Positions 44,263 through 55,999 of a stretch of DNA of 64,000 nt are shown piece by piece. A program made the translations under genes and the position numbers. Location of the stretch: contig JAADIG010000005.1 in assembly GCA_013151445.1 (NCBI GenBank), forward strand, positions 30,838-94,837. The letters are read 5' to 3'. The notes beneath the pieces were generated by a model. The model worked only from the letters and a program-made list of their open reading frames with translations. It was not told the origin of the DNA and made no database searches. The DNA is from Actinomycetota bacterium (GTDB taxonomy: Bacteria; Actinomycetota; Acidimicrobiia; Spongiisociales; UBA5794). The first letter of the stretch is position 1, and every line of letters starts with the position of its first letter.

Positions 44263-46311
<2,049 letters not shown>

Positions 46312-46332: not shown

Positions 46333-47160
46333 TCAACCCGGAATCTCATTCGATTCGTGATGAGCCAGTGGGCTGGGTCTTCCCCGGCGACGCTCGGAGC
46401 GTATCCCCCGTGATCGCTCGCTGGCGACGATCGCGGCAACGATGAGGTCATCACCTTTAACGCGGCGATGTTCCGTGAGCGCCGGTTGCAACAGTTCCGT
46501 GAGTTGACTCCGAACCGTGTTTCGAGCCGCCGAACTCAGCGTTGTTCGTCGGTTCACATACTCCTTTGCCACCCGGTAGCTGGCATCGGTCACCAGGGCC
46601 GAGTCGACGTGGCGCACGAGGCGCATCGCTCCCGACGTGACGATCGGGCGTTGGGGGCGCGGGAGCCGGACGACGACCGTACCCGCAACCGTGTCGCCGA
46701 GCCGTTGGTTCAGCGGTGACATCAGCATGGCCCAGAGGCCGATCGGCGGAAACATGTCGAGGAACCGCATGAGCGTACGGATCGTCGTTGCTTGTACCGT
46801 CGGGGGGCGCGCCTCCAGGGAAATTACTTGGAGGCTGCACAGCTTGCGACCGGGGGTCTGGCCCTCACGTTTGATGTCGAAGTACGCCCAGTAGCCGAAC
46901 AGAATGGCGATCGCGACCGAAGAAAGAACGACCAGCACGACGGTGCTGCCCCCACCAACAAAGAGTATCGACGCGAGCACGGCGAACACTGCGACCTCTA
47001 TCAGGTAGACCAGGCCGAGGTCGATCAAGGCAGCAATGAGCCGCGAGCCGACGCCCGCGATCTGGAGCGGGAACGTGAAGCCTTCGGGTGTCGTAACCGA
47101 GTGTGTAGTGTGCAACATGTGTCCGGGCCAACAGTACCTCCAACCATCACTGAAAACCAC
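46333..47160 (-). CDS. RDD-family membrane protein (start 47160 or internal ATG 47118)
   Basis: 'IAGVGSRLIAALIDLGLVYLI' and 'GQTPGRKLCSLQVI' are RDD (PF06271) hallmarks. C-terminal cytoplasmic tail. Confidence 0.6.
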   Translation of the reverse strand: MVFSDGWRYCWPGHMLHTTHSVTTPEGFTFPLQIAGVGSRLIAALIDLGLVYLIEVAVFAVLASILFVGGGSTVVLVVLSSVAIAILFGYWAYFDIKREGQTPGRKLCSLQVISLEARPPTVQATTIRTLMRFLDMFPPIGLWAMLMSPLNQRLGDTVAGTVVVRLPRPQRPIVTSGAMRLVRHVDSALVTDASYRVAKEYVNRRTTLSSAARNTVRSQLTELLQPALTEHRRVKGDDLIVAAIVASERSRGIRSERRRGRPSPLAHHESNEIPG

Positions 47161-48102
47161 GACAGTGTCGAGCGTGAGCTCATTGGTCGAGTCGAACGGG
47201 TCAAGGCGTCGCGCAAAGACAGCTTTGACAACGCCATCGAGATTGGCCGCCTCTACCGGGGCGTAACCGCCGAAGCCGCTGCGCTCGCGGATCCCAATTC
47301 GGGGGACTCCGACCGGCTCCGATCTGCCATCACCGAGGGTTACCGTTATGTGTACGGCGCACAGCCGTTCACCGACGGGTTCAAGACGTTTTTCGGGTCG
47401 ACGTTCTGGCTCGCCATTGCACGTCGGCGAAAGTTGATCAAATGGATCATGATCGCGCTCTTCGTATTTGCGGGACTCGGGGCCTTGTGGGCGGCTCTCG
47501 ACCCGAGCGCCGCAGCGACGCTCGTACCCGATATCTTCGGAAGCGCTCTCGACCCGGGTTCGACAGGAACGGCCACGCAGATGTCACCGGGTGAGCAAGT
47601 GCAGTTCGCACAGGAGCTGTTTGTCAACAATTTCCGGGTGACGTTGATGGCGTTTGTCGCGGGGATCGCTTTCGGTTTGCCATCGATATATCTGCTGGCG
47701 TACAACTCGGTGCTGCTCGGTGTGGTTGGCCAGCTCCTCGTGGCGCAGGGCGACGGAGCCTTCTTTCTCGAACTTGTTGCTGGCCACGGCCCCATCGAAC
47801 TCACGTCGATCGCGTTGGGAGTCGCCGCTGGATTTGCGATGGGTTGGGCACTCGTCGATCCCGGACTCAGGTCACGCGGTCAGGCTCTGCGTGAGGAGGC
47901 TTCGTATGCCATCGTGATAGCCGTTGGCACTGCACCGTGGTTGTTGCTCGCCGCAGTGATCGAGTCGTTTGTGTCACGAGTCGGACTATCTGCGGCACCG
48001 GTTGTGGCCGTCGGGTTGACGACCGTGGTCATCTTTTGGCGGCTGGTGTGGACCCGCGGGATCATACCCTTGCGCGATCTTTCAGATCTAAGTAGTGCTT
48101 GA
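47119..48102 (+). CDS. SpoIIM-like / DUF95 polytopic membrane protein (start uncertain)
   Basis: Cytoplasmic N-domain then 6 TM helices ('FRVTLMAFVAGIAFGLPSIYLLAYNSVLLGVVG'), typical of 'stage II sporulation protein M'-annotated actinobacterial proteins. The ORF-track start at 46792 overlaps the RDD gene; the GTG at 47119 was chosen instead. Confidence 0.5.
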   Translation: MSGPTVPPTITENHDSVERELIGRVERVKASRKDSFDNAIEIGRLYRGVTAEAAALADPNSGDSDRLRSAITEGYRYVYGAQPFTDGFKTFFGSTFWLAIARRRKLIKWIMIALFVFAGLGALWAALDPSAAATLVPDIFGSALDPGSTGTATQMSPGEQVQFAQELFVNNFRVTLMAFVAGIAFGLPSIYLLAYNSVLLGVVGQLLVAQGDGAFFLELVAGHGPIELTSIALGVAAGFAMGWALVDPGLRSRGQALREEASYAIVIAVGTAPWLLLAAVIESFVSRVGLSAAPVVAVGLTTVVIFWRLVWTRGIIPLRDLSDLSSA

Positions 48103-49300
48103 CACACGCGATCGGTAGGTCCGCGGCACGCAGCACAATCGGTTGGGCACCAAGATTCTTGAGCTGGTCAACGACTTCGAGCTGTTGGTTGAGTGCTTCG
48201 TGGGCAGCGACGCTGACGAACGCATCGAAGGTTGTCTCGGGATCGGTCAGCGTTGCATCCTCCAGCTCCGGGTCTATGGAAGACACGACGGCAACAGAGT
48301 GATGTCGAGCGAGAAGGGGCACCGCCCTCAGCAGAGCTTGTGAGGCGGCGGCGTCGAGGAGATCGGTGAAGATCAGCACAAAGGACCGCTTGGCTCTGAT
48401 TGCGATTTGGAGGGGTTCGTCGAACCGAGTGTTGTTGGTTGTGGGTTCGAGAGCGTGCAGTCCGCGCATCAGGGCCTCGCCACCGCGGCGACGGGGTGCG
48501 AGATGGTGGGTTAGCGACCGATCGAACGTCATGAATCCAACACGATCGCCAATGGTATCGGCGACATAGCCGACGGCGACTGCCGCGTCGATAGCGGCAT
48601 CCAGACGGGTCTTGCCACCGAGGTCGCCGCCCATCAGTCTGCCCTGGTCGATGAGACACAGTACGTTGCGGTCCTGTTCGAAGTTGAAGACGTTCGTCAT
48701 TGGCTGACCGGTGCGCAGCATGGCGCGCCAATTGATGTGGCGAAAGTCGTCGCCCGGCACGTATTCGCGAACCGAGTCGAAGGCGGTTCCGAGCCCGATG
48801 CGGCGGGTAACCCGCTCTCCTTGGCGCAGCGAGCCTCTCGCTACGGCATGCGCAATCCGACGTGCGGTGATGACGTCCGGGAATACGGTGATCGTCACTG
48901 CGGCCCGTGGCTGGTGGGTCCACGCACCCAGGCCCCAGCGTCCGAATGAACGCACAACAACCGACGGAAGTCGATGTGCGCCCCGTCGGGTCGCTACGAG
49001 CGTGAACGTGGTTGCTGAGGTAGGTCCCTGTGGGCGAACCGTAATGTCCGGAGTGCCGGGCTGGCGGAGCTGAAAGCGGTGCTGCGTCGCGACCGTGTAT
49101 TCGACCTTCGCTTCATACCCCCGGGCGAGGTGCTGCGGGATCTCCCCCGTGATGAGCGGGGGGTTGCGTACCTCGAGAGCGTCGACGACCGTGAGGGTTA
49201 TGACGAGGAGAACGGCGATACTCCCTGCGATCCCACCGAACGGGATCGCGAGGAGTGCGGCGCCAGCGGTCGCCAATGCGGATCGGGCTGTGGGCATCAC
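48062..49300 (-). CDS. DUF58-domain protein (vWA-like partner of MoxR ATPase)
   Basis: Two N-terminal TM helices, then a DUF58 core ('YVPGDDFRHINWRAMLRTGQPMTNVF', 'LIFTDLLDAAAS'). Start overlaps the moxR stop. Confidence 0.65.
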   Translation of the reverse strand: MMPTARSALATAGAALLAIPFGGIAGSIAVLLVITLTVVDALEVRNPPLITGEIPQHLARGYEAKVEYTVATQHRFQLRQPGTPDITVRPQGPTSATTFTLVATRRGAHRLPSVVVRSFGRWGLGAWTHQPRAAVTITVFPDVITARRIAHAVARGSLRQGERVTRRIGLGTAFDSVREYVPGDDFRHINWRAMLRTGQPMTNVFNFEQDRNVLCLIDQGRLMGGDLGGKTRLDAAIDAAVAVGYVADTIGDRVGFMTFDRSLTHHLAPRRRGGEALMRGLHALEPTTNNTRFDEPLQIAIRAKRSFVLIFTDLLDAAASQALLRAVPLLARHHSVAVVSSIDPELEDATLTDPETTFDAFVSVAAHEALNQQLEVVDQLKNLGAQPIVLRAADLPIACVKHYLDLKDRARV

Positions 49301-50226
49301 TTTGGGACGGGGACCTTGTCGAGGGTTTCGCTCACCGCGCTTGTCGCGCTGTATCGGTCTAGCTCGGCTTCGGGTCTGATAATTATTCGATGCGCGAGCA
49401 CGATGTTCGCCACGGCCTTGACGTCGTCGGGTGTCACGAAGTCCCGCCCGATTAGGCGTGCCGCGGCCTTGGCCGCCGCCAGCAGGTGGACGCCGGCACG
49501 CGGTGAGGCCCCGACCTCGACGTTTGCTAGCTGGCGAGAGAACCGCACGACCGACGCGACGTATTCGATCACCTCCGGCGAGACCCTGGTGTTTGCTACT
49601 GACGTGCGCATCGATGCGATGTCTTGCGAGGTCGCGACCGCCTTGACGTGGGAAACGGACGTGTCCTTCACGCCGCTGCGTGGCAGCGCGAGTAGGGCGC
49701 GCTCAGCTTCTTCGGACGGGTACGAAAGGACGAGCTTGAAGAGGAACCGATCAAGCTGTGCTTCGGGCAGGGGATAGGTGCCCTCGTACTCGATCGGGTT
49801 CTGTGTCGCTACTACGAGGAACGGATCGGGTAGCGGATGGCGTACACCGTCGACGGTGACATGCCCCTCCTGCATGCCTTCCAAGAGTGCACTCTGGGTC
49901 TTTGGGGGAGTTCGGTTGATCTCGTCGGCGAGTACAGCGTTGTGGAAAATCGGGCCCTTTCGGAACGAAAGCTTGGCACCGTCGAGTGCCAAGGTCCCGG
50001 TGATATCCGACGGCAACATGTCGGGGGTGAATTGGATTCGTCCAAAATCGAGTCCCAATGCTGCTGCGACGGTGCGGGCAACAAGTGTCTTCGCTACGCC
50101 CGGCGGTCCCTCGATGAGTACATGGCCTTCGACGCTCAGCGCCATCAGCAAGATATCGACCGTCGCCGACGCCTCGACAACGACCTGCTCAACTGCTTCG
50201 ATGACACGGGTACGTAGTTGGTTCAT
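49297..50226 (-). CDS. moxR: MoxR-family AAA+ ATPase
   Basis: Walker A 'GPPGVAKTLVARTVA', Walker B 'VLADEINRTPPKTQSALLEGMQE' and 'FLVVATQNPIEYEGTYPLPEAQLDRF' are diagnostic of the MoxR (MRP subfamily) ATPases. Confidence 0.9.
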   Translation of the reverse strand: MNQLRTRVIEAVEQVVVEASATVDILLMALSVEGHVLIEGPPGVAKTLVARTVAAALGLDFGRIQFTPDMLPSDITGTLALDGAKLSFRKGPIFHNAVLADEINRTPPKTQSALLEGMQEGHVTVDGVRHPLPDPFLVVATQNPIEYEGTYPLPEAQLDRFLFKLVLSYPSEEAERALLALPRSGVKDTSVSHVKAVATSQDIASMRTSVANTRVSPEVIEYVASVVRFSRQLANVEVGASPRAGVHLLAAAKAAARLIGRDFVTPDDVKAVANIVLAHRIIIRPEAELDRYSATSAVSETLDKVPVPK

Positions 50227-51356
50227 CCTCGGTCCTTCCTCATGGTTCTTTTTGATCTCAAAACTTGTGCGAGGGCTTGCGCAGTGGGGAGAAGTGGCGA
50301 AACCGAACTCAGGGCAAGGTTTATTTTCTGGTCCGGGACACCGGCCCGGCGCCCGGCCTCGCGCAGGTCGGCGGGATCGTTGCTTGCTGCTCGCCGTTGG
50401 AGTTCGCGCCGCAGCCGCATCCCAAGATAAGCGCCTGCGGGTCGGCGGGCATCTTCGATGCGTGCGAGGCGGGTTCCGAGCGCCGTTGCGTATTGAGATC
50501 GCGAAGGTTCAAGAGTGCGTTTGTTGCGCTCGATTGGTCCGAAGCGTGAGGTCGCCGACACGGCATACACGAATGCGGCGACACCGAGCAGCAGCAGCGT
50601 AGTTTTGATGTTCCGCGGGAGCGTTGCGAAACCGGTGGTTGGGCTCGGCGGTGTGACCGGTTCGTAGAAGAAAACCGGCTGGTCGGGTGCTCCGGCAACG
50701 AGTAGTGGGAGGCTGGCGTTATCAGCGTTGTACAGCCATCGGTTTGTGAGCAGGTCCGGATCTGCGAGGAACCAGGCAATTCCCTTCCCGATGGCGTCGG
50801 CGGCAACCGATGCACCGTCGGCGGTCACAACGACCGGGAGGGCGTCGCCAAGATCCGTGAACTGGCGGATGCCGGCTACGGGGCCACGGAGCATTGCGAG
50901 TTCGATACGTTCATCCAGCAGGCCATCAACTGTGACTTGAACCTGTGCCTGGACCGTCGTGGGTGAGGTTATCCGCGGTGCGACGGTGAGTGGTGGTGGT
51001 GCCCCAGCGAGGGCGAACACAACGTTGACGCCCGAACCGATGAGCTCCTCGAGTTGAGTTATCTCGGCGGCATCGAACGCGTGGATGCCGGCGATGAACA
51101 CCGTGGATCCCGGCGACACCGCAAGTGTGGATGTTGAAGGAAGGTCGGGTAGGCGGCGTATTGGGTGATCCTGTTCAAGGAGTGCATAAAGGTTGTCGAG
51201 CCCCGCGAGGGATGTGTCGTACGTTGACCACGGCACTGACTGTGTCGTTGGGGTCGGTGTTGGGGGGAAGAGTGTGATGTAGAGGCCCGCAAACAGTACG
51301 AAACCAACGGGAACCGTCCACACGACGTTCCAAAAGCCCTCCCGGCGGCGCTTCAT
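50223..51356 (-). CDS. DUF4350-domain protein (N-terminal TM anchor)
   Basis: TM 'VVWTVPVGFVLFAGLYITLF' then an extracytoplasmic domain resembling DUF4350. ATGA overlaps at both ends. Confidence 0.5.
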   Translation of the reverse strand: MKRRREGFWNVVWTVPVGFVLFAGLYITLFPPTPTPTTQSVPWSTYDTSLAGLDNLYALLEQDHPIRRLPDLPSTSTLAVSPGSTVFIAGIHAFDAAEITQLEELIGSGVNVVFALAGAPPPLTVAPRITSPTTVQAQVQVTVDGLLDERIELAMLRGPVAGIRQFTDLGDALPVVVTADGASVAADAIGKGIAWFLADPDLLTNRWLYNADNASLPLLVAGAPDQPVFFYEPVTPPSPTTGFATLPRNIKTTLLLLGVAAFVYAVSATSRFGPIERNKRTLEPSRSQYATALGTRLARIEDARRPAGAYLGMRLRRELQRRAASNDPADLREAGRRAGVPDQKINLALSSVSPLLPTAQALAQVLRSKRTMRKDRG

Positions 51357-52030
51357 GACGGATCCTCCGCAAGGATCTCGGCCCACACTTGTTCAAGATC
51401 GTCGGCCATGGTCTTGGTTGCTGGACGTTCGGCGTAGACAACGGTGTCGAAGTCCTGCGCAACCCGACTGGCGAGCGGATGACGGCTCGTTCGCCGAAGA
51501 GTGTCCGCGGTGGCTGTGGTGTGGTCGGTGATCTTTCCCCGCTCCTCCATTGCGGCGAGTCCCCATCGGAACCAGAGACGGACGGCGCTGGCGTAATCAC
51601 CGCCGTCTGCGGCCTCTTGCGCATCGTCGGCGTAGGTGCGGCGCTGCACATCCAGATTTGGGGCCGCGTCGGGCGACGCCCGTACGGCCGCCGGTTTCTT
51701 GCGGCCCTTGCGGGTCCGTACGAAGACGACCACAAGGGCGATACCGAGGGCGGCGATCAGGAAGTAGGCGAGGAACGTGCCATCGCCCGCCGCAGGCGGT
51801 CGTGCGGGAGACTCGAAGTTGTTGGGTTCTTGCTGGGTCGTTCCGGCAACATCGAGTCGAGTCAGCGTGTCGATGCGCTCCACGGCTGCCTCCGGGGATG
51901 CCTCTCCCAGGATCGTATCCATGTCTACCGAGCGACCGTCAACCTCCGTCACCGCCCGCAGTTGATCGAACGCGCCGGGGTCTGTCTGTGCGTTCTCGGC
52001 CAGGTCGACAAGTTCTTGGCTGGTAATCAT
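51353..52030 (-). CDS. DUF4129-domain protein (single TM, C-terminal DUF4129)
   Basis: TM 'FLAYFLIAALGIALVVVFV', then C-terminal 'AVRLWFRWGLAAMEERGKI...TADTLRRT' typical of DUF4129. Start set at ATG 52030, which forms an ATGA overlap with the upstream membrane gene's stop. Confidence 0.5.
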   Translation of the reverse strand: MITSQELVDLAENAQTDPGAFDQLRAVTEVDGRSVDMDTILGEASPEAAVERIDTLTRLDVAGTTQQEPNNFESPARPPAAGDGTFLAYFLIAALGIALVVVFVRTRKGRKKPAAVRASPDAAPNLDVQRRTYADDAQEAADGGDYASAVRLWFRWGLAAMEERGKITDHTTATADTLRRTSRHPLASRVAQDFDTVVYAERPATKTMADDLEQVWAEILAEDPS

Positions 52031-52842
52031 GGCGTCGGTGGGCTGGGTTGGGCGGCCGTCCGGGCCCTGTTGACTCTCTCCAGGAGGTCGAGGCCATCTC
52101 TTCTTGCGATACCGTCCGATACAAGCGATACCGAAATAGCGCCGATGGTTCCCAGTGCTGTTGACGCAACCAGGATGAAGACCGGAGCGATGATGGCCAG
52201 CACAGGAGTCGGTGGAGGATTCTCGGTGATCCATGCGAATGCCACACCGTAGGTCCCGACACCGAGACCGACGATCACGAGTGCGGTCACAAGGACGACC
52301 CAGAGGACCTTGAACACTCGACGGGTTGCGAGGTGGAACGACCGGGTCAGCGTTGCAACGTACCCCTTGTCCTCTCGGACGAGGATGCCAGGGATATGCA
52401 GCACGAGCGGGAGCGGTAGCAACAGGACCGTACCGACAGCCATCGTCGCGGCCAAGGACAAGTTCTTGATGGGGATTGCGAGGCCAAGGGTTCTGAATAG
52501 CTCTCGTGCTGAGCGGCGGCGACCGGTACGAACGTCTTCGGCGACGTATGCAGCCCCAATGATTTGGAAAGCAAACACGAGTGCAAGCAGCGAGAAGTCG
52601 ACGGCGTCAGGGTGCAGTCGTCCTGTTTGAACCGCCCCTTCGAGGTTGATACCTGTGGCTGGTCCGGACCAGTTACGGATGATTGCCACAATCGTGTACA
52701 CCGATCCGATCGCTAACGTCACTCGTGTCATCGTGCCTAGTGATCGACGCCATAGGGCGAATCCCACATCTATGACTTCACCGATTTCGAGCGGTCTATC
52801 CGGCGGCTGTTCCTGGGTCGTCCCTAACACGGCGCTCAGCAT
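52027..52842 (-). CDS. Hypothetical polytopic membrane protein (first gene of the MoxR-associated block)
   Basis: About 6 TM helices. Start set at 'MLSAVLG' (ATG 52842), 20 nt after the egtD stop. Confidence 0.45.
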   Translation of the reverse strand: MLSAVLGTTQEQPPDRPLEIGEVIDVGFALWRRSLGTMTRVTLAIGSVYTIVAIIRNWSGPATGINLEGAVQTGRLHPDAVDFSLLALVFAFQIIGAAYVAEDVRTGRRRSARELFRTLGLAIPIKNLSLAATMAVGTVLLLPLPLVLHIPGILVREDKGYVATLTRSFHLATRRVFKVLWVVLVTALVIVGLGVGTYGVAFAWITENPPPTPVLAIIAPVFILVASTALGTIGAISVSLVSDGIARRDGLDLLERVNRARTAAQPSPPTP

Positions 52843-52861: not shown

Positions 52862-53893
52862 TCACTGGCGCGGCCGATGAAGCTTCCAGGGACGCTGCCG
52901 GGAGACAGGTTTGGGCTGCAGCAAAGCAACCGCAAATCTATCCTCGGTGTCGGTCCACCACCCACCGACGGACAGTCCCGCGGCGGATGCTTCGGCGACT
53001 ACGACGTCATACCGGAACTTGCAGGACACTTCGTCGTGGATTTCCTCGCCCTTTGCGAGGTGAATCGTGAGATCGAGGTCGGCGACTGTCACGTCCATGG
53101 CGCGGGTTGCTCGCAGTCCCATGGCGACACACTCGCTTGCAGCAACCCATTTCACGACGTACTCGAACTCATCGACTGGGAAGTTGGCGCCGAGTTCCCT
53201 GTTGAGAACGTGGAGGATGTTCTTGTTGAACTCTGCGGTAACACCAGCGCTGTCGTTGTATGCGGCTAGGAGCGTCTCGACATCCTTCACGAGATCAAGA
53301 CCTACGAGGAGGCCGTCAGCCGGTTCGAGTACGGCCCCGACCGAGCGATAGAACTCGACTCTCTCCTGGGACCGAAAATTCCCGATCGTCGACCCGAGGA
53401 ACGTCACGAGCCGGCGTCCGGAGTGTGGGATTTTCGGGAGATCCGAGGGGAAATCACCCACGAGACCTTCGATTGTCAGCCAGGGATAGTGTCCACTCAA
53501 AGTCTCTGCGGCGTCGCGAATCGCTGCCTCGGAGATATCGAACGGAACGTAGAGTGTTCCGGTCCCCGCCCGGCGGAGGGCCTCAAGCAACAATCGGGTT
53601 TTGACCGAGTATCCAGACCCGAGCTCGACGAGCTCCACGGGTTTGATCGCATCCATCATTTCGTCCGCATACAACGTGAGAATCTCCGCTTCGGCCCGGG
53701 TGAGGTAGTACTCCGGGAGTCGGGTGATGTCTTCAAACAGCTCCGACCCGCGGGCGTCGTAGAAGTATTTTGACGAGAGTTGTTTTGGTGTTCCGATCAA
53801 CCCCTGGCGAGTATCCGCGGCGAGTTCAGCACCGACGTTCGACGGAGGTGACAGCCTCCGGATCGAGGGTGCAGTTTCAAGCTGTCCAGTCAT
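52862..53893 (-). CDS. egtD: L-histidine N-alpha-methyltransferase (ergothioneine biosynthesis)
   Basis: '[34 protein letters not shown]', '[14 protein letters not shown]' SAM-binding and 'FLGSTIGNF' EgtD motifs. Start at ATG 53893 forms an ATGA overlap with the egtC stop. Confidence 0.85.
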   Translation of the reverse strand: [343 protein letters not shown]

Positions 53894-54660
53894 AGCCCCT
53901 CCAGCGGGTGCGTGGTGATTCCCTGTGATGTGAGATGGACGAGGTGATGCTCCGGGACCGGCTCCCAAGCTCGCAGGTCGTCCAACGGTTCCGAGACCAC
54001 CCACGATCCGGTCGATTGTTGAACGGTATATAAACTATTCAGCGGGGCATTCACGGAGTGGCGCACCGCAACTATGCCGGTTCCGTCACCTACGACGAGA
54101 TTCATTGTTGCGTCAGAGCCGTTCTCGGCGACAAGCCCGCCGACGAAGTTCAGTGCTTCGGTCGTGGCGTCAACGAGGTTTCCCTCATAACGATCGACGA
54201 CGGTGAGGAAGATGGCCAGTGAATCGTTGATGGTATGCAGTTGCTCATAGGTGTCCGCGGAGAGTGAGCTCAACAGGCTACGTCCCAGAGCACCACGGAA
54301 CCCCGTGATGCGGCCATTGTGTACCGCGGCCAAATCACCAACAACAAATGGTGCAACGTTTGCTGGACCGATCGCAATGCCGGCACTCGCCGAGCGAACC
54401 GCTGCGATCAGCATTCCGGAGGTGAGACGTTCCGAGAGAGCGGGCAGGTTGGCATCCTGCCAGGGTGCGAGCGGTGTGACGTAGCGCAGTGGTGTGCGGT
54501 CCCCACCGTCCCACCAGGCCACCCCCGTTCCGTCGACGTTGACGGAGCCATGGATCTGCTCGCGCGGCTGATACGCCTGTTTCTCAAGCGAGTGAGGCGC
54601 TCGGTAGAGTGCCTCGGCGAGCGGAATCGCATCCCCAACATACGCAGCTAGACGGCACAT
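53890..54660 (-). CDS. egtC: Gamma-glutamyl-hercynylcysteine sulfoxide hydrolase (class II glutamine-amidotransferase fold)
   Basis: Begins 'MCRLAAYVGD' (Ntn-hydrolase Cys2 nucleophile), ~256 aa, positioned between egtB and egtD. The ORF-track start at 55497 was rejected (overlaps egtB). Confidence 0.8.
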   Translation of the reverse strand: MCRLAAYVGDAIPLAEALYRAPHSLEKQAYQPREQIHGSVNVDGTGVAWWDGGDRTPLRYVTPLAPWQDANLPALSERLTSGMLIAAVRSASAGIAIGPANVAPFVVGDLAAVHNGRITGFRGALGRSLLSSLSADTYEQLHTINDSLAIFLTVVDRYEGNLVDATTEALNFVGGLVAENGSDATMNLVVGDGTGIVAVRHSVNAPLNSLYTVQQSTGSWVVSEPLDDLRAWEPVPEHHLVHLTSQGITTHPLEGL

Positions 54661-54661
54661 C

Positions 54662-55999
54662 TCAGATGTCCCAGGCCAATCTGATACCGGCGAAGATCTG
54701 ACGGCGGATTGGGTAGTCCCAGTTGCGGAACGTTGTGCGTGCCGTCGACTTCGATGTCGCCCACGACGCTCCCCGCAACACCCTGTAGTCCTCACCGAAG
54801 AACACTTCGGAGTACTCCGGGTACGGAAACATCGTGTAGCCGGGGTACGGCTCGAAGAACGACGTCGTCCACTCATATCCATCGCCCAGCATCTGTTCGA
54901 CACCGTATGCGCTCGCCCCGGCCGGATAACTTCCGACTGGAGCCGGACCCCAGCCACGATGGCCAAGGTTGGCGTGGTCGGTCGTCGGCGCAGTCTCGCC
55001 CCATGGATAACTTCGTGTGGTTGCTGTCTCCGGGTCCCATGCCGCGGCCTTTTCCCACTCGACCTCCGTTGGAAGGCGTGCACCGAGGGAGCGGGCGAAC
55101 GCCTCCGCTTCGTGAAAGCTGACGTGCTCGACCGGTTCGGCAGGATCGAGAGAGGTGATGTGGCCAAAGCGCCGTACGAGCCATCCGCCGTCGAGATCGG
55201 GAATCCAGCCCTGGGGTGCCGCATGGCCCTGCTCGGTGATCCAATCCCAACCATCTGCGGTCCAAAGTTCCTGACGTTGATAGCCCCCTGCCCGAACGAA
55301 TTCGCTGTAACGAGCAACGGTAACCGGGAATTTGTCGATGGCGAACGTGTCGACGTTGATCGCATGGGCGGGGCGTTCGTTGTCGTACGTGTGTGTGCGG
55401 TCGTCCGTTCCGAGGCTGAACGTTCCACCGGGAATTGTGACCCGGGCGGCGTCGTCCACGGCGTCGGTACGGCGCGGCAGGCGTCGTGGAGTGGCAATCA
55501 CATAGGGGGCCAGATCGTCGCGCAGGTCCAGTGCTTGAAGCACCGTCTCTTGATGTTGAGCCTCGTGCTGGGCAACCATCGACCACACGAACCCGTTCGC
55601 CAGCAGGGGTGTGTCTGGATCTAGATCTGTGTGCCGGAGAAGGTCCAGTGCTTCGCCGCGCACATTGTCCATATATGTGGCGGCTTCGCGGCGATCGAGA
55701 ATGGGCAGATCCGCCCGCACCCACCGCGGGTTGTCAAAAGGGTTGTAGAGACCATCAAGGTCGGGGTCGTGGGCCGCACGTCCATCGAGTTCGCGAAGTA
55801 GCCAGTATTCCTCGAAGTTGGCTACGTGTCCCATATCCCAAACAATCGGGGACATGAGTGAATTGAACTGTCGGTGGAGGTCATCGTCGGTGAGGGCATC
55901 GGTCATCTGGAACGTGCGACTCCGGATGGTGGAGAGCATCGATTCGAGGTCTGTCCGGCGTGCGGCGTGCGCGGCCCCCCGGTTCGGGGCGGCAGTCAT
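54662..55999 (-). CDS. egtB: Hercynine oxygenase / sulfoxide synthase (DinB_2 + FGE-sulfatase domains)
   Basis: 'SPIVWDMGHVANFEEYWLL' iron-binding DinB_2 motif and the C-terminal FGE-like domain ('GGSWATS', 'RNWDYP'). The egtC start codon follows 2 nt after the stop. Confidence 0.85.
   Translation of the reverse strand: MTAAPNRGAAHAARRTDLESMLSTIRSRTFQMTDALTDDDLHRQFNSLMSPIVWDMGHVANFEEYWLLRELDGRAAHDPDLDGLYNPFDNPRWVRADLPILDRREAATYMDNVRGEALDLLRHTDLDPDTPLLANGFVWSMVAQHEAQHQETVLQALDLRDDLAPYVIATPRRLPRRTDAVDDAARVTIPGGTFSLGTDDRTHTYDNERPAHAINVDTFAIDKFPVTVARYSEFVRAGGYQRQELWTADGWDWITEQGHAAPQGWIPDLDGGWLVRRFGHITSLDPAEPVEHVSFHEAEAFARSLGARLPTEVEWEKAAAWDPETATTRSYPWGETAPTTDHANLGHRGWGPAPVGSYPAGASAYGVEQMLGDGYEWTTSFFEPYPGYTMFPYPEYSEVFFGEDYRVLRGASWATSKSTARTTFRNWDYPIRRQIFAGIRLAWDI

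Follow-up and report, generated by a model that had tools for sequence, protein, structure and literature searches.

MoxR-type AAA+ ATPases encoded beside a DUF58 protein and several membrane proteins are found in a number of described gene clusters. The closest of these to the block of seven genes analyzed in this study, which occupies 46333-52842 of a 64,000-nucleotide stretch (the window) of contig JAADIG010000005.1 from an Acidimicrobiia bacterium of the lineage UBA5794, is the mycobacterial cluster Rv3689-Rv3695. In Mycobacterium chelonae the genes are annotated as a membrane protein, DUF4350, MoxR, DUF58, SpoIIM and RDD, and are mapped to MAB_0392c, 0390c, 0389c, 0388c, 0387 and 0386c and to Rv3689, Rv3691, Rv3692, Rv3693, Rv3694c and Rv3695 (PMC8191103, Table 4). 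The membrane protein, one gene between, DUF4350, MoxR and DUF58 share one strand, SpoIIM lies on the opposite strand and RDD follows (PMC8191103). In RNA-seq of an M. chelonae double lysogen, the whole cluster dropped by 6-9 log2 units together with glpK, glpF, a PadR regulator and a KR-domain gene (PMC8191103). In M. tuberculosis, Rv3694c and Rv3695 appear in the co-immunoprecipitation list of the divisome-associated membrane protein Rv0954 (PMC8093794).

An archaeal neighbourhood of arCOG01314 (DUF4350), MoxR (COG0714) and a protein with a von Willebrand factor A (vWA) domain was predicted to form a secretion or membrane-remodelling complex (Makarova, Galperin & Koonin 2015, PMC5898192). The same study noted SpoIIM homologues of undescribed role in non-sporulating bacteria and archaea, some of them beside vWA and COG0714 ATPase genes (PMC5898192). 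Full-text literature searches on the DUF families, on MoxR with RDD and SpoIIM, and on the Rv and MAB tags returned no functional study of the cluster; the literature on it consists of incidental mentions of Rv3689-Rv3695 and the 2015 computational prediction, made for the archaeal version only. This agrees with a preliminary description of the window, made from the letters alone, which held that no experimental function exists for this combination of genes. Because mycobacterial genomes already carry annotation for the cluster and the 2015 study treated its archaeal cousin, it is not new as a gene cluster; it is known and functionally uncharacterised. By annotation, the block in the window is a cluster of the Rv3689-Rv3695 type, and its layout recurs in 41 loci of Actinomycetota. 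Our analysis indicates that the seven genes very probably form one functional system.

Co-conservation of the seven genes

The open reading frame (ORF) listing and a start-codon analysis resolve 46333-52842 into seven genes with zero non-coding bases, designated A to G. Gene A (52027-52842, minus strand) encodes 271 residues from an ATG start, a GPDPase_memb-like polytopic membrane protein. Gene B (51353-52030, minus) encodes a divergent, bitopic DUF4129 protein of 225 residues, gene C (50223-51356, minus) a DUF4350 protein of 377 residues, gene D (49297-50226, minus) a MoxR-type AAA+ ATPase of 309 residues and gene E (48062-49300, minus) a DUF58 protein of 412 residues. Gene F (47119-48102, plus) encodes a SpoIIM-family polytopic membrane protein of 327 residues, and gene G (46333-47118, minus) an RDD-family polytopic membrane protein of 261 residues. 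The block is thus not one co-directional string: A to E and RDD are encoded on the minus strand and SpoIIM on the plus strand, so that SpoIIM converges with DUF58 and diverges from RDD. The preliminary description had placed seven genes in 47119-52842. All seven are real genes, but that span holds six of them, and the RDD gene (46333-47118) lies outside it.

Orthologous loci were collected from a HMMER search with C, which gave 534 representative homologues with whole-length matches. A collection with one genome for each GTDB species was then scanned with an alignment of a subset of these, which yielded the 41 loci. This sample is biased, because the seed motif [AS]RGRRLGPPE restricts it to Actinomycetota that carry the motif. 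It covers Thermoleophilia (Gaiellaceae, Solirubrobacteraceae, Baekduia), Acidimicrobiia, Actinomycetes and unclassified Actinomycetota. In phmmer and profile searches of their ORFs, A to E follow one another on a single strand, and next come F, encoded on the opposite strand, and G. Among the loci that reach far enough, A is present in 32/32, B in 37/37 (by profile), D in 38/38, E in 35/35, F in 34/34 and G in 32/32. By an iterated hidden Markov model (HMM) search, B is immediately preceded by an A homologue in 41 of 44 loci, the remaining three being at contig ends, and the strand of F is opposite to that of A to E in 35/35 actinobacterial loci. An independent contig with Pfam annotation (L046) gives the same picture.

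With its single copy and its synteny the cluster is housekeeping-like, unlike a variable island, and its conservation is far beyond chance. The flanks are not conserved, the commonest flank family being found in 9 loci. As the flanks vary around a fixed block, the module consists of exactly these seven genes. The earlier claim that the genes form one module around MoxR and DUF58 therefore stands, with order, orientation and presence fixed in every orthologous locus reaching far enough.

Two variants of the layout were seen. In L045 (13645-15587), A to E are intact and a DDE transposase gene comes next; two unannotated genes (227 and 229 residues) occupy the place of SpoIIM and RDD, with no F or G called. 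This may be a disrupted or variant cluster. In about nine loci (L006, L010, L017, L019 and L035 among them) a second, shorter RDD paralogue lies just downstream of G.

Gene junctions and transcription signals

Genes A to E are joined by start/stop overlaps of the translational-coupling type. The overlaps are ATGA at A/B (52027-52030, minus), B/C (51353-51356, minus) and C/D (50223-50226, minus), and GTGA at D/E (49297-49300, minus). A 4-nucleotide overlap is available at A/B in 15/31 orthologous loci and is present at B/C in 29/35, at C/D in 28/38 and at D/E in 27/33. If E starts instead at the ATG at 49297, the D/E junction becomes TGATG with a 1-nucleotide overlap. Four consecutive ATGA overlaps had been reported at the outset; three of them hold, but the MoxR/DUF58 junction is the GTGA. 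E (minus) and F (plus) converge in a 3' overlap of 41 nucleotides (48062-48102), and 3' overlaps of 4 to about 130 nucleotides are found in most orthologous loci. The divergent starts of F and G abut, the ATG of G ending at 47118 on the minus strand and the GTG of F beginning at 47119 on the plus strand.

The lengths of A to E (271, 225, 377, 309 and 411-412 residues) match the public gene calls on relatives that are 84-98% identical. The start of F was inferred from orthologue lengths, and the ATG at 47118 was taken as the start of G because homology to orthologues begins at residue 5-8 of G. The public call of the SpoIIM gene in L001 (13255-14565, equal to 46792-48102 of the window) is an ORF of 436 residues that runs antisense over the first 327 nucleotides of RDD, and public callers leave G uncalled in relatives where F is extended in this way. 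The 436-residue call is probably a systematic annotation error for back-to-back SpoIIM/RDD pairs.

The F/G junction carries conserved candidate transcription signals. The two starts lie 0-6 nucleotides apart in 25/33 other loci, with a spacing of 3 nucleotides in 15 of those. A TANNNT hexamer is located 5-8 nucleotides upstream of the RDD start in 20/33 loci and at 9-10 nucleotides in 10 more; the background rate at the 5-8 nucleotide spacing is 0.2%. In loci L004-L044 (for example, L005 12201-12250) the plus strand of the junction is conserved as TCTA(G/C)GTTCA(T/C)nnn(G/A)TG, and the first SpoIIM codons (Met-Asn-Leu/Val) double as a -10-like TANNNT 6-7 nucleotides before the RDD start. The coding start of SpoIIM thus looks constrained by a promoter on the opposite strand. 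The hexamer is also kept where 58-934 nucleotides separate F and G. For example, about 930 nucleotides are inserted between the SpoIIM and RDD starts in L017 (12226-13161) and L019 (6333-7266), and TAGGTT still stands immediately before RDD. This persistence across spacings is consistent with a leaderless RDD mRNA, with its -10 element supplied by SpoIIM codons 2-3. In the lineage of the window the pattern is reversed: a -10-like TAGTGT (47106-47111, plus) is found 7 nucleotides before the GTG of F, which suggests a leaderless F mRNA there. A scan of 45.5-58.5 kb with generic sigma-70 promoter and terminator consensus sequences gave nothing above shuffled expectation.

F and G must therefore have transcripts of their own, on account of strand and, in the case of G, also of an apparent -10-like element, and the block needs at least three transcripts. 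This bears on whether the seven genes are one system at all, as an A to E operon could sit beside unrelated SpoIIM-like and RDD genes that are kept there by inherited synteny. The strand of F and the apparent -10-like element of G would fit such an arrangement, as would L045, in which A to E are followed by a transposase gene without F or G. However, F and G are found in all 34 and all 32 of the respective loci across several classes of Actinomycetota while the flanks vary, and in the sample examined their profiles coincide with those of A to E. In addition, E overlaps F and the starts of F and G abut, and on a Rhizobium plasmid SpoIIM and RDD follow DUF58 co-directionally with overlapping junctions. 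Inherited synteny of unrelated genes is for these reasons hardly credible as the explanation. Separate transcription or a lack of co-conservation had been named at the outset as what would speak against a single module. F and G do need transcripts of their own, but all of the genes are strictly co-conserved, so the single-module claim survives.

The neighbours of the block are less constant. Upstream on the same strand (52862-55999, minus) lie genes for an EgtD-like protein (Methyltransf_33), an EgtC-like protein (GATase_4) and an EgtB-like protein (DinB_2 and FGE-sulfatase). The end of egtD is only 19 nucleotides from gene A, so A to E may be co-transcribed with egtBCD in the lineage of the window. 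A functional link to ergothioneine synthesis was set aside, as EgtD is beside the block in 0/41 other loci. The egt genes of M. tuberculosis, which we take to be Rv3700c-Rv3704c, would also lie a few genes away from Rv3689-Rv3695. On the other side, a gene for the NAD-dependent DNA ligase LigA (44266-46311, plus) converges on the RDD gene with a gap of 21 nucleotides, and L001 has the same neighbour.

Families, folds and predicted topology

Domain calls on the proteins of the window were made with the curated (gathering) cut-offs of Pfam. DUF4350, MoxR, DUF58, SpoIIM and RDD, all proposed in the preliminary description, score above these cut-offs, but protein B does not reach the one for DUF4129. 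In NCBIfam, none of the six proteins other than the ATPase was assigned to a specific family. No significant PDB match came from sequence searches with E or with the A, B and C profiles, an exact-sequence lookup of C returned no record, and word-indexed homologue searches with B or C alone found 4 close relatives each.

The MoxR assignment of D is strong (AAA_3/MoxR, 198.9 bits against a cut-off of 27, 3.3e-59; AAA_lid_2, 71.1 bits, 6.6e-20), and its closest solved structure is 2r44_A (1.7e-70). The translation contains Walker A GPPGVAKT (40-47), Walker B D101-E102, sensor-1 N143 and R160. Both Walker motifs are intact and a signal peptide is absent. From its family membership D is predicted to be a hexameric ATPase or chaperone. 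The gene for its DUF58 partner, E, lies directly downstream. E matches DUF58 (PF01882) over residues 176-364 (78.7 bits, cut-off 23.4, 4.7e-22) and VWA_2 (6.9e-8). Its N-terminal hydrophobic hairpin (7-46) is accompanied by a beta-rich region and by a domain of the vWA-like type.

The vWA-like domain of E has lost its metal-ion-dependent adhesion site (MIDAS). Of the canonical pattern DxSxS...T...D, the protein keeps the T (in TRLD), but D218-x-G-R-L-M stands in place of DxSxS. The window protein and 35 actinobacterial orthologues have DxGRLM without exception, and the motif is also found in the copy on a Rhizobium plasmid. It marks this cluster type and argues against metal-bridged ligand binding.

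The MIDAS loss bears directly on the possibility that D and E are a chaperone that inserts a metal cofactor into, or otherwise activates, an unlinked enzyme, with the membrane genes as bystanders. Classical MoxR/vWA chaperones include NorQ/NorD, CoxD/E/F, CbbQ/O and MoxR for methanol dehydrogenase, and an adjacent, translationally coupled MoxR and vWA-type partner, as in this block, is a hallmark of such systems. However, the metal site is lost in every examined member of the cluster type, no gene for a client enzyme is conserved nearby, and conservation of the five membrane genes is just as strict as that of MoxR and DUF58. A cofactor-insertion role is thus very improbable.

Gene B gave the least direct family assignment. 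The window protein is not matched by DUF4129 (PF13559; E = 9.1, 6.9 bits, cut-off 24.8). Its positional orthologues do match DUF4129 (28/32 members of the alignment, best 3.4e-11), and B was therefore assigned as a divergent DUF4129 protein. Phmmer from the window protein reaches these orthologues at E values down to 5e-18, and a profile of the orthologues retrieves 1072 proteins, most of them with PF13559. One orthologue in the alignment has a weak match (5.4e-4) to DUF4381, which in Bat-type operons is the small membrane protein encoded after DUF58; the two families may be adaptors that are either related or analogous.

The topologies were predicted from hydropathy and the positive-inside rule, together with the signal-like N-termini of some orthologues. 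B comprises an acidic N-terminal domain (1-61, predicted outside), a transmembrane segment (84-107), an RTRKGRKK cluster and the DUF4129 domain (123-221). The DUF4129 domain is predicted to be cytoplasmic by the positive-inside rule, because the transmembrane segment and then RTRKGRKK precede it. Some B orthologues have an N-terminus resembling a signal peptide, which likewise places the N-terminus outside and DUF4129 inside. The AlphaFold 2 model of B has a predicted local distance difference test (pLDDT) score of 78, above 90 in DUF4129, which is modelled as a four-helix bundle. Residues A137, A140, R151, L152, F154, G157 and Y199 are invariant in the family. Foldseek returned nothing at E <= 1e-3 for the DUF4129 model, and the family alignment shows neither an Rx4-6H RNase motif nor a conserved His. 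A likeness of the modelled four-helix domain to HEPN is only a lead.

Protein C matches DUF4350 (PF14258) at 37.9 bits (cut-off 30.4). It begins with MKRRRE and is laid out as a first transmembrane segment (2-29; hydrophobic segment 9-31), an alpha/beta domain (54-231), a second transmembrane segment (248-270; hydrophobic segment 250-272) and a helical tail (286-376) predicted to be cytoplasmic. The AlphaFold 2 model (pLDDT 81) likewise has the alpha/beta domain between the two transmembrane segments with the helical tail after them. The tail is basic and highly conserved, with the motif RGRRLGPPE...LPPPR..Y in relatives. A reading of this tail as a second DUF4129 domain was rejected (hhalign probability 0.2). 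B and C both carry a conserved helical domain after a transmembrane segment and a basic cluster. The initial view of the DUF4129 and DUF4350 proteins as single-pass with extracytoplasmic domains was thus right in part: B has one transmembrane segment and the ectodomain of C is predicted outside, but C has two such segments and the DUF4129 domain is predicted to be cytoplasmic.

The ectodomain of C has a GIFT/class-I-glutamine-amidotransferase-like fold and matches GIFT domains. There is no invariant Cys in the family alignment and the Cys-His-Glu triad of true amidotransferases is lacking, so the domain is likely a non-catalytic scaffold or binding domain. A GIFT-type ectodomain raises the possibility of a transport or secretion apparatus in which A, F and G form a conduit, C acts as an accessory like GldG of the GldFG ATP-binding cassette (ABC) transporter linked to gliding and the type IX secretion system, and MoxR-DUF58 assembles or gates the complex. 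'A novel secretion system' was proposed for the archaeal DUF4350-MoxR-vWA genes, with similarity to GldG by HHpred (Makarova et al. 2015, PMC5898192). The GIFT match of C and the strict co-conservation of three polytopic membrane proteins point in the same direction. However, no ABC ATPase or permease, secretin or pore protein, or conserved cargo gene was found in the block and its flanks, and the S-layer and Ig-like partners of the archaeal genes are absent from the block in the window. MoxR proteins are, moreover, remodelling chaperones and not translocation motors. Secretion or transport is thus an unlikely function of the block.

The predicted arrangement of B and C, each joining an outside domain to a conserved inside domain, would also suit a transmembrane switch that senses a threshold. 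The GIFT domain of C or the N-terminal domain of B would detect an envelope signal and the MoxR-vWA pair would give an all-or-none cytoplasmic response. Such a role was proposed for MoxR-vWA ternary conflict systems and was shown for the Esr pathway of oral Actinomycetales; in Schaalia, a MoxR-vWA pair relays an extracellular signal (2026 preprint, doi 10.64898/2026.09.08.750141). D has a weak match to bpMoxR (31.8 bits, cut-off 27), although that to AAA_3 is far stronger. By Pfam, the conserved block lacks the beta-propeller sensor, effector domain and kinase/FHA modules of the ternary conflict systems, and it also has no phosphatase or transcription factor. The block is also single-copy and housekeeping-like, as noted above, and PADLOC detected nothing specific in it, only generic AAA similarity with no signature of a defence system. 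A reading of the block as a defence system is not supported by PADLOC, and a sensing switch appears quite improbable.

The remaining proteins are polytopic. A has no Pfam match in the window, and 26/30 of its orthologues match PF10110 (GPDPase_memb; best 3.7e-8), with weaker matches to UPF0259 and DUF7847. From these matches, A appears to belong to the GPDPase_memb (PF10110)/UPF0259-like superfamily as a divergent member. It has at least four hydrophobic segments, a conserved N-terminal R-P..GE..D motif and a C-terminal Y.DLR.R.EG.D motif. The preliminary description had called it a membrane protein, which is correct as far as it goes, but had left its family unnamed. F (SpoIIM, PF01944, 114.2 bits, cut-off 26.9, 7.6e-33) has an N-terminal soluble region of about 105 residues, and G (RDD, PF06271, 68.5 bits, cut-off 24.1, 9.5e-19) has a C-terminal soluble region of about 110 residues; both had rightly been described as polytopic.

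Proposed working and comparison with related systems

We tentatively favor, at somewhat less than an even chance, a reading in which MoxR acts through the membrane-tethered DUF58 protein to assemble or switch an envelope-facing membrane complex. E would bring the soluble MoxR AAA+ ring (D) to the cytoplasmic side of the membrane, and it probably binds its partners without a bridging metal, given the loss of its MIDAS. The likely clients or partners would be the cytoplasmic parts of the co-encoded proteins, namely the DUF4129 bundle of B, the tail of C and, in A, F and G, the soluble ends, and ATP hydrolysis would assemble, disassemble or switch the membrane complex. The only sizeable extracytoplasmic parts are the GIFT domain of C and the small N-terminus of B, so the output is most likely at the cell envelope. 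This role could be membrane or wall homeostasis, or that of a scaffold for an envelope process. The initial suggestion, that the architecture looks like a chaperone or a machine that remodels some membrane or periplasmic substrate, is plausible. The strict co-conservation and compactness of the block, the cross-phylum spread of the cluster, the intact Walker motifs of MoxR, the hydrophobic hairpin of E, the conserved helical domains of B and C, the Rv0954 co-immunoprecipitation and the absence of a defence signature were counted in favor of this assembly or switching role.

Several points weigh against it. First, the topology is predicted, and the physical complex, its direction of action and its envelope role are putative. 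Secondly, the tail of C and DUF4129 are without detectable similarity by hhalign, so the idea of one shared docking module lacks support. Third, the window protein C lacks the near-invariant H235/G236 of the E..HGYG motif before its second transmembrane segment and reads SRFGPIE in place of RGRRLGPPE, and the window protein B lacks a segment of about 40 residues (ILxERRF...PRPLxGxLxWLGD) found in relatives. The lineage of the window has thus lost conserved features of B and C, and the function there may differ in detail. In addition, the Rv0954 co-immunoprecipitation is a single list entry with low spectral counts (PMC8093794). Lastly, the neighbours glpK, glpF and PadR fall together with the cluster in the M. 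chelonae lysogen, so a deletion, or a regional effect or silencing, is possible there and specific regulation does not follow.

A broader and doubtful extension is that the cluster represents a previously unrecognised cross-phylum inner-membrane machine, a new class for envelope biogenesis or secretion built from a GIFT ectoprotein, a HEPN-like DUF4129 adaptor, a MIDAS-less DUF58 protein, MoxR and subunits of the SpoIIM, RDD and GPDPase_memb types. If true, this would explain the role of moxR2 (Rv3689-Rv3695) in M. tuberculosis. In any case, few blocks of unknown function in Actinomycetota are conserved as strictly as this cluster, and its presence in M. tuberculosis and M. abscessus gives it medical relevance. 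Our analysis adds the seven-gene boundary, the predicted topologies, the GIFT-type ectodomain and the predicted cytoplasmic DUF4129 bundle, as well as an unusual back-to-back arrangement of SpoIIM and RDD promoters. The window alone gives no direct clue to function; these new features make it testable in tractable hosts.

Relatives outside Actinomycetota were found by a tblastn search of E against plasmids, which gave 156 records. A version of the cluster occurs on symbiotic-type plasmids of Rhizobium. There (L047), the genes encode DUF805, DUF4129 (2.7e-5), a DUF4350-like protein (profile 1e-8), MoxR (7e-78), DUF58 (5e-35), SpoIIM (1e-19) and RDD (7e-12), all co-directional with overlapping junctions, and the DUF58 protein has DxGRLM. 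The first gene differs, DUF805 standing at the position of A.

The archaeal neighbourhood shares with the window a DUF4350 protein with a GldG/flavodoxin-like ectodomain, MoxR and a DUF58-type vWA protein, and has S-layer and Ig-like membrane proteins of its own (PMC5898192). In a haloarchaeal plasmid example (L048), DUF58 lies close to MoxR-DUF4350, DUF4129, SpoIIM and RDD are not recognisable, and DHRHS stands at the MIDAS position instead of DxGRLM.

Bat operons, in the order MoxR, DUF58, DUF4381, BatA, BatB, (BatC), BatD, share the MoxR and DUF58 core followed by small bitopic or membrane proteins. They also encode two further vWA proteins (BatA and BatB), the TPR protein BatC and BatD, none of which was found by Pfam in the block of the window, and they have no DUF4350, SpoIIM or RDD. 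The Bat-type DUF58 keeps a canonical MIDAS (DVSGS), and the loss of this metal site with DxGRLM therefore separates the present cluster type from Bat-type MoxR operons. Bat-type examples were found on plasmids of Prevotella, Sinorhizobium and Pantoea (L049-L051); the Sinorhizobium and Pantoea matches were considered as TgpA/DUF4129 contexts and rejected as Bat-type operons.

In Pseudomonas aeruginosa, PA2875, PA2874 and TgpA form a co-transcribed three-gene unit, and TgpA has a periplasmic domain and a final transmembrane segment (PMC3507681). The outside domain of TgpA is an active transglutaminase, tgpA is essential, and the unit has no DUF4350, SpoIIM or RDD. We take PA2875 to be MoxR-like, PA2874 to be a DUF58 protein and TgpA-like proteins to end in a DUF4129 domain. 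If these architectures hold, DUF4129 recurs as the cytoplasmic end of membrane proteins linked to MoxR and DUF58.

The remaining likenesses concern single proteins. GIFT proteins (GldG, IFT52, OST48/WBP1) resemble C at the level of the fold only and have other partners, and the block has no ABC transporter; sequence-profile searches hit IFT52 and GH42M only below threshold (E 0.05-0.8). The DMP engulfment complex of Bacillus contains SpoIIM as a polytopic membrane scaffold that shares its Pfam domain with F, whereas the window offers no sporulation context; SpoIID and SpoIIP are not among the families of the conserved block, although no search was aimed at them.

The mycobacterial locus (moxR2 = Rv3692; MAB_0386c-MAB_0392c; BB28_RS01875-01900), compared by annotation only, is thus the nearest counterpart of the block, with the same families, order and strands. 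In contrast to it, the window comes from a distant and poorly sampled lineage, whose closest named relative is 'bacterium BMS3Bbin02'; its B and C proteins are divergent, and its block directly follows egtB-egtC-egtD.

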